This document shows positions 9,754-57,562 of a stretch of 64,000 nucleotides of DNA, piece after piece. The stretch's first letter is position 1. Each line of letters starts with the position of its first letter. Source of the DNA: Lachnospiraceae bacterium (GTDB lineage Bacteria > Bacillota > Clostridia > Lachnospirales > Lachnospiraceae); assembly GCA_016285265.1 (NCBI GenBank), contig JAEEQL010000001.1, positions 5,003 to 69,002 on the forward strand. The letters run 5' to 3'. The position numbers were made by a program, and so were the translations under genes. The notes beneath the pieces are model-generated. The model was given only the letters and a program-made list of their open reading frames with translations. It had not been told where the DNA came from and made no database searches.

Positions 9754-10920
9754 ATGTTTAAGATCAATTGCCTTAATCCTATTTCGCAGGTCGGTCTTGC
9801 CGATCTGACCGGTGATTTCCATATTACCGATAAGGTAGACGAAGCAGAGGGTATCCTTGTAAGAAGCGCTTCCATGCATGAGATGGAGCTTCCCGCGGGG
9901 CTTCTTGCTGTTGCCAGAGCAGGTGCGGGAGTCAACAACATCCCTCTTGATAAGTGCGCAGAGAAGGGTATCGTTGTTTTCAATACCCCCGGTGCAAACG
10001 CTAACGGCGTTAAAGAGCTCGTCCTTGCCGGCATGCTCCTTGCTGCCAGAGATATCGTAGGCGGTATCGAGTGGATCAAGGAAAATGCATCCGATGCGGA
10101 TATTGCCAAGACTGCAGAGAAGCAGAAGAAGAACTACGCAGGAACCGAGATCGCAGGCAAGAAGCTCGGTGTCATCGGACTCGGTGCCATCGGTGTTAAG
10201 GTTGCAAATGCAGCTATCCATCTCGGAATGGAAGTTTACGGATACGATCCTTATCTTTCCGTAAATGCAGCCTGGAACCTTTCCAGAAATGTAAAGCATG
10301 TTGAGAAGGTAGAAGAGATCTATAAGGAGTGCGATTACATCACCATCCATGTTCCCCTTCTTGATTCCACTAAGGGAACGATCAACCGTGATGCGATCTC
10401 CCAGATGAAGGACGGCGTTGTCGTCATTAACTATGCAAGAGACCTTCTTGTTTCCGAGACCGATATGCTTGAGGCTCTCAAGAACGGCAAGGTTGCAAGA
10501 TACGTATCCGATTTCCCCAACCCCACCACCGCAGGACAGCCCGGTGTCATCCTTACTCCCCATCTCGGAGCAAGTACCGAGGAGTCCGAGGACAACTGTG
10601 CTAAGATGGCGGTTGCAGAGATCATGGATTACCTCAACAACGGAAACATCAAGAATTCCGTTAACTATCCCGCAATCGACATGGGACCCTGCGACAACAA
10701 GGGAAGAATCGCTGTATTCCACAAGAATCAGGCTAACATGATCACCCAGTTCACCGCAGTCATCGGTGCCGAGAAGATCAACATCTCCGATATGATGAAC
10801 AAATCCAGAGGAGATTATGCGGTAACACTTCTCGATCTTGATGATGTACCCACTGAGTCTCTCGTTGAGAAGCTCGCAGCAGCTGAAGGCGTTATCCGCG
10901 TAAGAGTAGTAAAAGGATAA
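9754..10920 (+). CDS. serA: D-3-phosphoglycerate dehydrogenase with C-terminal ACT domain
   Basis: ARAGAGVNNI, GVIGLGAIG, HVP, NYAR, TPHLGASTEE; follows serC. Confidence 0.93.
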   Translation: MFKINCLNPISQVGLADLTGDFHITDKVDEAEGILVRSASMHEMELPAGLLAVARAGAGVNNIPLDKCAEKGIVVFNTPGANANGVKELVLAGMLLAARDIVGGIEWIKENASDADIAKTAEKQKKNYAGTEIAGKKLGVIGLGAIGVKVANAAIHLGMEVYGYDPYLSVNAAWNLSRNVKHVEKVEEIYKECDYITIHVPLLDSTKGTINRDAISQMKDGVVVINYARDLLVSETDMLEALKNGKVARYVSDFPNPTTAGQPGVILTPHLGASTEESEDNCAKMAVAEIMDYLNNGNIKNSVNYPAIDMGPCDNKGRIAVFHKNQANMITQFTAVIGAEKINISDMMNKSRGDYAVTLLDLDDVPTESLVEKLAAAEGVIRVRVVKG

Positions 10921-10937
10921 TATCATAACGCATAAGA

Positions 10938-10977
10938 AAGAGTCAGGAGATAACTTCTCCTGACTCTTATTTTTTCT
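10938..10977 (+). terminator. Intrinsic terminator of serC-serA
   Basis: 13-bp stem AAGAGTCAGGAGA/TCTCCTGACTCTT, loop TAACT, then ATTTTTT. Confidence 0.9.
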
Positions 10978-10979
10978 TT

Positions 10980-11148
10980 GCGGGTAACGCGAAATATATG
11001 AGGATTCGAGCTTCGTCGTCTGCGTTAGAAACGGCCGCCTGGCCTGAACGAAGTGAATGGCCTGCGGCATGAGACAGAACAGATGTCGATCCGGTTTCGC
11101 GCCTGACGACGAAAAAGCGAGAAGACTCATACATTTTGTGTTGCCCGC
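10980..11148 (+). repeat. Dispersed ~170-bp structured repeat, copy 1 (MITE-like element or ncRNA)
   Basis: Near-identical to 57379-57548 (4 mismatches in the first ~95 nt); 23-bp imperfect terminal inverted repeat; compensatory changes between copies. Confidence 0.9.
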
Positions 11149-11157
11149 TTTAGCAAC

Positions 11158-11186
11158 AAAAAAGTCAGGAGTAGTTATCTCCTGAC
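11158..11186 (-). terminator. Intrinsic terminator of the minus-strand small gene
   Basis: Minus strand reads GTCAGGAGATAACTACTCCTGACTTTTTT just past the stop codon. Confidence 0.85.
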
Positions 11187-11193
11187 CCGTGAT

Positions 11194-11457
11194 TTATTTC
11201 TTGTCGTCGTCTTCGATGTCCTTGAGGCTTTCCTGCAGCTTGTTCTCCATTTCCATCGCGAACTCGCTTGCCAGATCCATATATTCGATAAAGACATCGC
11301 TCAGCGATTTGTCCTGCTCCTCGCCGATCTTCTTCATGATCGGAGTGAGTTTGTCCAGCTGGTAGGATATCGGGGTTTTCTGCGGATCTATGTCCGGCAT
11401 TACCTCGTTGGCATAATCATTTATCCTTTTGAGCATTTCTCTTTGTTCGGTAGTCAT
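11194..11457 (-). CDS. Hypothetical acidic 87-aa protein
   Basis: Fills the intergenic gap; purine-rich SD (GGGGG); extended -10 TGCTATAAT on the minus strand at 11480-11488; own terminator. Confidence 0.75.
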   Translation of the reverse strand: MTTEQREMLKRINDYANEVMPDIDPQKTPISYQLDKLTPIMKKIGEEQDKSLSDVFIEYMDLASEFAMEMENKLQESLKDIEDDDKK

Positions 11458-15139: not shown

Positions 15140-15212
15140 GCCGGAATGGCTCAGTTGGTAGAGCGAGGCATTCGTAATGCCTAGGTCAGGGGTTCGAGTC
15201 CCCTTTCCGGCT
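15140..15212 (+). tRNA. tRNA-Thr (anticodon CGT), CCA not encoded
   Basis: Cloverleaf: acceptor GCCGGAA/TTCCGGC, D arm GCTC/GAGC, anticodon arm AGGCA-TTCGTAA-TGCCT, T arm AGGGG-TTCGAGT-CCCCT. Confidence 0.96.
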
Positions 15213-57357: not shown

Positions 57358-57378
57358 ATAATTTATAGAAGTAAATTT

Positions 57379-57548
57379 GCGGGTGACGCGAAATGTATGA
57401 GGATTCGAGCTTCGGCGTCTGCGTTAGAAACGGACGCCTGGCCTGAACGAAGTGAATGGCCTGCGGCATGAGCTGAAATATTCGTCGAATAAGTTTCGCG
57501 CTTTACGCCGAAAAAAGCGAGAAGACTCATACATTCCGTGTCAATCGC
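57379..57548 (+). repeat. Dispersed ~170-bp structured repeat, copy 2
   Basis: Homologous to 10980-11148 in the same orientation; terminal inverted repeat preserved. Confidence 0.9.
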
Positions 57549-57562
57549 GGAGTAGTTTAAAA

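Follow-up and report, generated by a model that had tools for sequence, protein, structure and literature searches.

Two ~170-nt repeats at 10980-11148 and 57379-57548 of the window (the whole 64,000-nt stretch of Lachnospiraceae DNA that was analyzed) are members of one multicopy family, a previously undescribed set of gene-less, hairpin-shaped repeats that lie between genes in one group of rumen bacteria. The family is, or recently was, mobile DNA, as orthologous sites in close relatives are found filled, empty, bearing a remnant, or inverted. We favor, at a probability of roughly 0.6, the reading of the family as a foldback (palindromic, MITE-like) mobile DNA element that is non-autonomous and specific to one lineage, and the best-supported reading of its single-strand fold is that the fold is under selection or constraint. 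The earlier note on this DNA had offered, as one of two alternatives, a non-autonomous mobile element of MITE or REP type with a preserved fold, and that interpretation is supported by the multiple copies, the single lineage, the filled and empty sites, and the covariation.

The two window copies and the reach of the family

The two copies and their immediate surroundings comprise the following features:

10938..10979, + strand: copy 1, left arm; terminator hairpin AAGAGTCAGGAGATAACTTCTCCTGACTCTT followed by a T-run (terminator scan)
10980..11148, + strand: copy 1, core; 169 nt, covariance-model score 169.7 bits (fold; covariation)
10980-11020 with 11101-11148, + strand: copy 1, outer rod, with tandem G.A internal loops at TCGAG/CGAGAA
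11021-11100, + strand: copy 1, three-way junction, with the conserved hairpin GGCCUGAACGAAGUGAAUGGCC and a variable hairpin
11149..11188, + strand: copy 1, right arm; an A-run, then the inverted hairpin copy GTCAGGAGTAGTTATCTCCTGAC
57358..57378, + strand: copy 2, 5' side; ~21 nt ATAATTTATAGAAGTAAATTT, absent from the empty site
57379..57548, + strand: copy 2, core; 170 nt, "naked", without hairpin arms
57549..57562, + strand: copy 2, 3' side; ~14 nt GGAGTAGTTTAAAA, absent from the empty site, its GGAG lengthening the terminal helix

Copy 1 carries inverted terminator hairpins at 10938-10968 and 11162-11188, outward of the core. Its left arm is the exact reverse complement of its right arm, loop included, and is predicted by the terminator scan to terminate the upstream 2-hydroxyacid dehydrogenase gene; read on the - strand, the right arm is predicted by the same scan to be a terminator for the convergent 87-aa gene. 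The computed + strand fold of copy 1 reaches -84.2 kcal/mol (z = -9.1, with 0 of 200 dinucleotide shuffles as good) and the - strand fold -68.3 kcal/mol; in the 261-nt fold of the copy together with its arms, the arms pair with each other, at -125.7 kcal/mol (z = -11.9). A consensus promoter scan found no + strand promoter for copy 1. Copy 2 is flanked by the stop codon of an AAA+ (MoxR-like) ATPase gene on one side and by the start of a VWA/CoxE-like gene on the other, and its ~21-nt 5' stretch arrived with the copy, since that stretch too is missing from the empty site.

Aligned over ~165 nt, the two copies are 88% identical and differ at exactly 4 of the first 95 positions, so that the alignment confirms the same-orientation copy at 57379-57548, with 4 differences in the first ~95 nt, that had been reported from inspection of the letters. 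The terminal helix, nested helices, and invariant hairpin GGCCTGAACGAAGTGAATGGCC described at that time are all present, and the structure-preserving changes that had been singled out (A-U to G-C at position 7 and U-A to G-C in the inner helix) are seen both in the alignment and in the alifold table. The label "copy 1 of 2" has to be revised, however: the window's own genome (G000; 2.7 Mb in 190 contigs) contains about 15 full-length copies and ~6 partial ones by BLAST and covariance model, plus short remnants. The covariance model alone gives 16 matches there, drawn from full-length copies and contig-end pieces; the copies cut by contig ends are C8 and C75, and 3' partial copies lie at C152:13800 and C51:3924. 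The proposed correspondence to Clostridiales-1 RNA or another described motif is not supported, as no Rfam match to the repeat appears even at E <= 10. Over the window, Rfam returned only one tRNA at the gathering score, and over 10900-11250 only chance matches (E > 3). That tRNA gene, at 15140-15212 on the + strand (71 bits), is the sole Rfam match in the window.

Only a single sub-clade within one genus of rumen Lachnospiraceae has the family, and the isolates AC2028 (G041) and P6A3 belong to it. AC2028 carries 2 full copies, and P6A3 gives 7 matches, of which 5 are full-length and 2 measure ~123 nt. The family is present in 16 of 16 genomes of the sub-clade (MoxR-like identity to that of the window at least 91%), at 1-16 copies each, with 1-15 covariance-model matches per genome in the relatives; in the sister sub-clade (81-85% MoxR-like identity), 17 genomes have 0 copies except for one weak match, in G007. 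A broader model found no match in 400 genomes from 181 other genera of the order. When the genomes of 185,579 species were scanned for the core pattern and the hits were checked with the covariance model, only rumen Lachnospiraceae remained: buffalo, yak, sheep, and cattle MAGs, and two Hungate isolates, AC2028 and P6A3. Matches to the core pattern in actinobacteria and elsewhere are due to chance, none of them fitting the covariance model, and a phage, plasmid, or viral origin was rejected for want of any match in phage, plasmid, and IMG/VR collections. Several contigs end inside copies (C8, C75, C38, and C130), indicating that the element breaks these rumen genome assemblies.

Fold, covariation, and variants

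The core ranges from 124 to 230 nt, and its + strand is modeled as a long rod capped by a three-way junction. All copies begin at the 5' end with (G/A)CGGGU(G/A)(A/G)CG, and most end at the 3' side with GCGGCAGGACCCGC. From the ends inward, the modeled rod consists of P1 (the paired ends), an internal loop of GA versus GCAGG, a 3-bp helix, a helix of 9-10 bp, two tandem G.A loops around UUC/GAA (UCGAG versus CGAGAA), a 9-bp helix, and a GCG/CGC helix. The predicted junction is closed by GAAAC/GUUUC and contains a CCGCC-U-GGCC...GGCC-U-GCGG hairpin, a CAUGAG strand, and the variable hairpin. Conserved nucleotides that the model leaves unpaired are GGGUGAC, UCGAG/CGAGAA, CUGCGGCAUGAG, and GGCAGGACCC. 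GUCC often stands just 5' of the element (e.g. at C113, C152, C117:1927, and C73) and GGA(G) follows its 3' end, which together give a 9-bp terminal helix, UCCGCGGGU/ACCCGCGGA; GGUCC could instead pair with GGACC inside the conserved CAGGACCCGC, a possible alternative conformation. We considered a k-turn for the GA/GCAGG internal loop and for the apical GA.GA hairpin and rejected it, as position 8 can be A or G and as some copies have Watson-Crick pairs or long hairpins where others have the tandem G.A pairs. We also rejected the 55-aa minus-strand open reading frames of both copies as coding: 1-nt indels between the copies disrupt the frame, and the family is therefore not coding.

The core occurs in several variants. 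At the 3' end there are three forms, namely a near-perfect complement of the 5' end, the common GCGGCAGGACCCGC, and a form with an additional ~55-nt two-hairpin domain between GCGG and CAGG; the last is an indel within one orthologous copy, since at the C87 locus the window's genome has the domain and G046 does not. This module reads GACAGGAKGTC-MGAAAGACATG-nnn-GCAAGTACAnGGATGTACTTGC-ATGTCC and is present inside the copies C54:3174, C87:4825, C113:2221, C152:13820, and C51:3944 of the window's genome, and also away from the element, inside other palindromes (C33:401 and C59:3451 of the same genome); it looks like a second family of small, nested repeats. The diverged copies C113 and C152 have UGUAUGAGGAUUC/GAAGACUCAUACA swapped for GAGAAAAAAGUC/GACUUUUUUCUC, and some other diverged copies carry a long hairpin in place of the apical hairpin. 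A mini subfamily of 124 nt is without P4, P5, and the 5' half of P6 and keeps the rod and CUGCGGCAUGAG; this deletion derivative has multiplied to up to 6 copies per genome (6 in G044).

To quantify covariation, a covariance model built on 14 copies from the window's own genome was used to gather 41 distinct copies from 13 genomes. In the resulting alignment, which was fitted to the covariance model and thus leans toward structure, 96% of cells hold standard pairs, 41 of 49 pairs have changed on both sides, and 0 of 500 shuffles match the observed pairing and compensation; with the partners slid by 1-3 columns as a control, 33-43% of cells are paired. Aligning the genome's own copies with MAFFT and folding them with alifold gives 20 compensatory pairs of 43. 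With an effect this large, and with the MAFFT/alifold result beside it, chance is untenable as an explanation. The bias of imperfect pairs toward G.U on the + strand, which the earlier note had drawn from the two window copies, extends to the 41-copy alignment (38 G.U versus 19 A.C cells), where the modeled + strand is the stabler one in 38 of the 41 copies, by a mean of 6 kcal/mol. These figures are to be read with some caution, because the copies share ancestry and because some of the symmetry may reflect copying from arm to arm and not selection.

Such strong covariation also bears on a second reading, in which the family is a set of multicopy structured noncoding RNA genes whose product is the ~170-nt + strand RNA (for example, a protein-binding scaffold or a ribozyme-like molecule), with the flanking terminators insulating each small transcription unit and dispersal being secondary. 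We regard this as possible but rather unlikely. It would account well for covariation that extends to inner helices of 3-5 bp, for conserved unpaired nucleotides and G.U pairs that favor one strand, and for an optional extra domain that, like those of real RNAs, sits in an internal loop; a locus downstream of rqcH that is occupied across the whole sub-clade is also in keeping with it. It accords poorly with the dispensability of the apical hairpin and of the whole P4/P5 region in variants that are still multiplying, with copy numbers of 1-16 and the free loss of copies, and with the absence of the family from the sister sub-clade (one weak match aside) and from the other genera searched.

Filled, empty, and inverted sites

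The case for mobility of the foldback element comes from comparison of orthologous loci. At the copy 2 locus, G046 (99% amino acid identity) is empty and reads TAA-T-ATG, G006 has a copy, G048 has a diverged member of the family, G002 retains only a 35-nt 3' fragment in reverse orientation, and more distant species are empty. The copy 1 locus is filled in G002, in G046, and in one allele of G006; it has shrunk in AC2028 to both hairpins around GCTGCAGGACCCGCAG, and elsewhere unrelated terminators occupy the site. The two G006 alleles (C121:62362-63525 and C15:13414-13881) both carry the 3' end of the 2-hydroxyacid dehydrogenase gene, followed in one by the element and in the other by an unrelated terminator, so that two strains are probably mixed in this bin. 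When 12 loci were compared with those of four close relatives (flanks 85-99% identical), we found filled, naive empty, internally deleted, and remnant states. The junctions of the remnants fall at short direct repeats (GCGG, CTGTC, and GGA), which points to loss by slippage-type deletion and not by precise excision. New insertions, together with the multiplying 124-nt derivative, show recent activity. The flanks of one copy in the window's genome (C189:1044) lie on separate contigs, at C1:49213 and C7:319741, in the near-complete 10-contig assembly of AC2028, which hints at a rearrangement at the element site.

What travels with the core is informative as well. For nearly every copy, the 20-45 nt on each side are reverse complements of one another, loops included, and the arm sequences are unrelated between loci; the commonest arrangement in the window's genome is a terminator hairpin with a T-run on the left and an A-run with the inverted hairpin on the right. 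These arms (H1 hairpins) travel with the element, since 15 of the 16 H1 hairpins in the window's genome adjoin an element copy, and arms arrive with the copy, since the naive sites at locus B (in G018 and P6A3) are missing both arms. The same two observations led us to reject, for H1, the alternative in which a terminator family common in the genome serves as the insertion site of the core. The outer arm stem GGGGACGG/CCGUCCCC of the C73 locus matches the resident terminator of the empty sites. Two mini copies lie in the loop of a different, longer palindrome. Copies thus tend to lie at the apex of a longer hairpin, and one arm seems to derive from its partner or from the adjacent flank.

Two further palindromic families were noted along the way. 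Long perfect palindromes of ~90 nt in total, with the arm GGTGACAGnCGGGGACGCTnCTnTTTTGTCATC..., are intergenic in P6A3, G044, and G009 (L250 and L254, at P6A3 C1:828081-828580 and C1:406795-407307, with L251, L291, and L300), and two of these have a mini element in the loop. A dispersed terminator-like hairpin family, GAGTCACnGGGGACAGTCCCCnGTGACTC, is found in AC2028 (L232, L237, and L238) and in the arms of C148:17212 of the window's genome, with its hairpins sometimes standing as inverted pairs around a short spacer.

The element prefers the 3' ends of genes. Among 55 copies, 17 lie between convergent genes and 3 between divergent genes; co-directional genes flank another 31, with the element in the same sense in 16 and in the opposite sense in 15, and the remaining 4 have one flanking gene uncalled at the end of a locus or contig. 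Over these 55 copies, orientation is unbiased with respect to transcription and, with transcription as its proxy, to replication, which argues against a cis-regulatory RNA and against strand-specific insertion of the IS200/IS605 type. A common neighbor gene was also rejected, the flanks being unrelated housekeeping genes.

Inversion is frequent at occupied sites. At loci A and C, the arms are identical between P6A3 and G018/G044 and the core lies the opposite way round. The locus 3' of rqcH, which encodes an NFACT protein, is occupied in 7 species (G000, G012, P6A3, G009, G018, G023, and G044), with a core that reads in the sense direction of rqcH in some of them and in the antisense direction in the rest. 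Segments bounded by inverted repeats and present in both orientations, as in invertons, are thus found between species at three orthologous loci. One could accordingly regard the copies as invertible DNA switches, in which the arms or ends would be recombinase sites and flipping of the asymmetric core would alter termination or read-through of the neighbors. The size, the inverted-repeat flanks, and the end sequences common to all copies suit such switches, as does the fact that terminator-like hairpins belong to the unit; the same copy and arms do occur in opposite orientations between related species at the three loci. We nonetheless consider this highly unlikely. Self-complementarity spans the whole element and not its ends alone, the setting with the most copies is between convergent genes, where a switch would have nothing to control, and ordinary homologous recombination between inverted arms of 20-40 bp explains the flipping. 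Within samples, the contigs showed a single orientation, although assembly would hide a mixture. The cwpV and flgB switches of Clostridioides difficile, which are 150-200 bp long, bounded by inverted repeats, and found in either orientation, are single-copy, lie between promoter and gene, are flipped by RecV, and are not self-complementary throughout. The present family resembles them in its 150-200 bp scale, inverted-repeat bounds, occurrence in both orientations, and clostridial host, but differs in being multicopy, located mostly at gene 3' ends, and self-complementary throughout.

The abundance of remnants and deletions could also be taken to mean that the family is a functionless, decaying relic repeat without a dedicated mechanism, its covariation arising purely from quasi-palindrome correction (template switching or hairpin mismatch repair) and shared ancestry. 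Arms that are perfectly symmetrical, loops included, go beyond what selection on local hairpins would need and so favor this account, and the searches for Y1 and reverse transcriptase genes found no partner enzyme. It is nevertheless very improbable in our view: palindrome correction should erase bulges, tandem G.A loops, and an asymmetric junction, all of which are conserved across copies differing at >40% of positions; G.U strand asymmetry is unexpected from a symmetric DNA process; and the new insertions and the multiplying derivative amount to recent activity.

Candidate mobilizers, expression, and relation to known elements

The earlier note had named IS200/IS605 TnpA, RAYT, and reverse transcriptase as possible partners, none of which is present in the high-copy genomes. 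PF01797 (Y1 transposase) is absent from G000, G002, G006, G009, and G018, which have 8-16 copies each, and is found in several element-free genomes; PF00078 (reverse transcriptase) is absent from G000, G002, G006, G009, G014, G018, and G041. As their presence is uncorrelated with that of the element, we rejected all three as mobilizers. A partner gene could have been missed, because most of the genomes are incomplete MAGs. A parent insertion sequence was rejected for the window's genome, in which none has the same ends.

Expression data bear chiefly on the noncoding RNA gene reading. Rumen metatranscriptome contigs cover copies, at low depth, strandless, and possibly with DNA in the libraries, and one such contig runs from the ATPase gene into copy 2. 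A TATAAN box stands 13-16 nt upstream in only about 12 of 40 copies. The coverage and the boxes upstream of some copies are consistent with small transcription units. Against these, the promoter is not conserved, GC-rich arms abut the 5' end in most copies, and the combined depth of all copies is lower than that of single-copy neighbor genes.

Judged against MITEs, the family is short, noncoding, and multicopy (124-230 nt; 1-16 copies per genome), has terminal inverted repeats (the GCGGGU.../...ACCCGC ends pair, and the rod runs on into the inverted arms), and occupies sites that are filled and empty between close relatives. Several points count against a MITE-like reading. Covariation in the short inner helices and the conserved unpaired nucleotides exceed what ordinary MITEs show and could mean an RNA function, and some of the sites scored as empty are deletion remnants and not naive. 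A consistent direct target-site duplication was not found at the copy 2 site, at locus B, or at the other filled and empty pairs compared, the sole candidate being CCGTCC(C) at the C73 locus. Within the window's genome, the terminal motif is present only in element copies, and no larger element has the same ends. Y1 transposase and reverse transcriptase are, as described above, absent from high-copy genomes.

A literature search with broad terms found nothing specific to the family, and the family does not qualify as REPIN/RAYT, PATE, a retroelement, or any Rfam family. The closest known kinds are nevertheless instructive. As summarized in PMC3184786 from Okstad 2004, Klevan 2007, and Kristoffersen 2011, bcr1 (the group A bcr of the Bacillus cereus group) is a gene-less repeat of ~155-170 nt that is dispersed between genes and unevenly distributed between close strains; it has a predicted cruciform or rod maintained through compensatory changes, is mobile without a transposase of its own, has 5-bp direct repeats on its flanks, and is a known transcript (PMC3184786). 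The present family shares with bcr1 its size, gene-less intergenic dispersal, uneven distribution, compensatory changes, and lack of its own transposase. It differs in that no target duplication was found, its transcription is putative, the sequence is unrelated, and the copies have private inverted terminator-like arms and invert in place. The same summary describes Correia/nemis in Neisseria and SPRITE in Streptococcus pneumoniae as MITE-like repeats that serve as terminators (PMC3184786), and the present family is like Correia and SPRITE in consisting of small gene-adjacent repeats with terminal inverted repeats, long stem-loops, and motifs resembling Rho-independent terminators. Correia elements, however, are bounded by terminal inverted repeats of a defined 26 bp, come with a TA duplication, and have no conserved multi-helix junction at their center, whereas the present core has a covarying three-way junction and outer arms that vary between copies. 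Dispersed extragenic hairpins, compensatory change within hairpins, and a presumed single-stranded DNA form recall REPIN/RAYT and the palindromic elements derived from IS200/IS605. Unlike REPIN/RAYT, the top-copy genomes lack the Y1 (RAYT/TnpA) gene; unlike both, the family is without the orientation bias expected of lagging-strand insertion; and a REP doublet is much smaller and simpler than the element. Four differences thus separate the family from bcr1, Correia, and SPRITE: the lack of a target duplication, the private symmetrical arms, the frequent inversion in place, and the covarying three-way-junction core.

If the family is a non-autonomous foldback element, as we favor, new copies would form by way of a folded single strand or else by template switching at the hairpin, with the moving enzyme acting in trans. 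One arm would be templated by the other during copying, whether by fill-in of the folded single strand or by template switching at the quasi-palindrome, which would explain why the arms are private yet symmetrical and would also account for some of the "compensatory" change. The conserved bulges, tandem G.A loops, and asymmetric junction would be preserved by selection acting on the fold of the single strand. Landing mostly at gene 3' ends, the element would replace or double the resident terminator and then act as a bidirectional terminator or insulator cassette. A more ambitious proposal, which we think unlikely, is that the conserved rod and three-way junction form the recognition or guide structure of a new type of mobile element that moves as a folded single strand, is handled by an unrecognized enzyme specific to the sub-clade, and leaves flanking duplications that are inverted and not direct, or else that the copies are genome-wide invertible terminator cassettes flipped by one recombinase.

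Should the foldback reading be true, the family would be an unusually clear natural case of a small mobile repeat that persists by its single-strand fold, and not by its sequence or by target duplication. Its symmetrical private arms, its frequent inversion in place, and the lack of a known transposase, RAYT, or reverse transcriptase would then point to an unrecognized route of hairpin-DNA copying, either template switching or a new enzyme. As two cultured isolates, AC2028 and P6A3, carry the family, the question can be tested at the bench. In practical terms, the family would supply ready-made bidirectional terminators.
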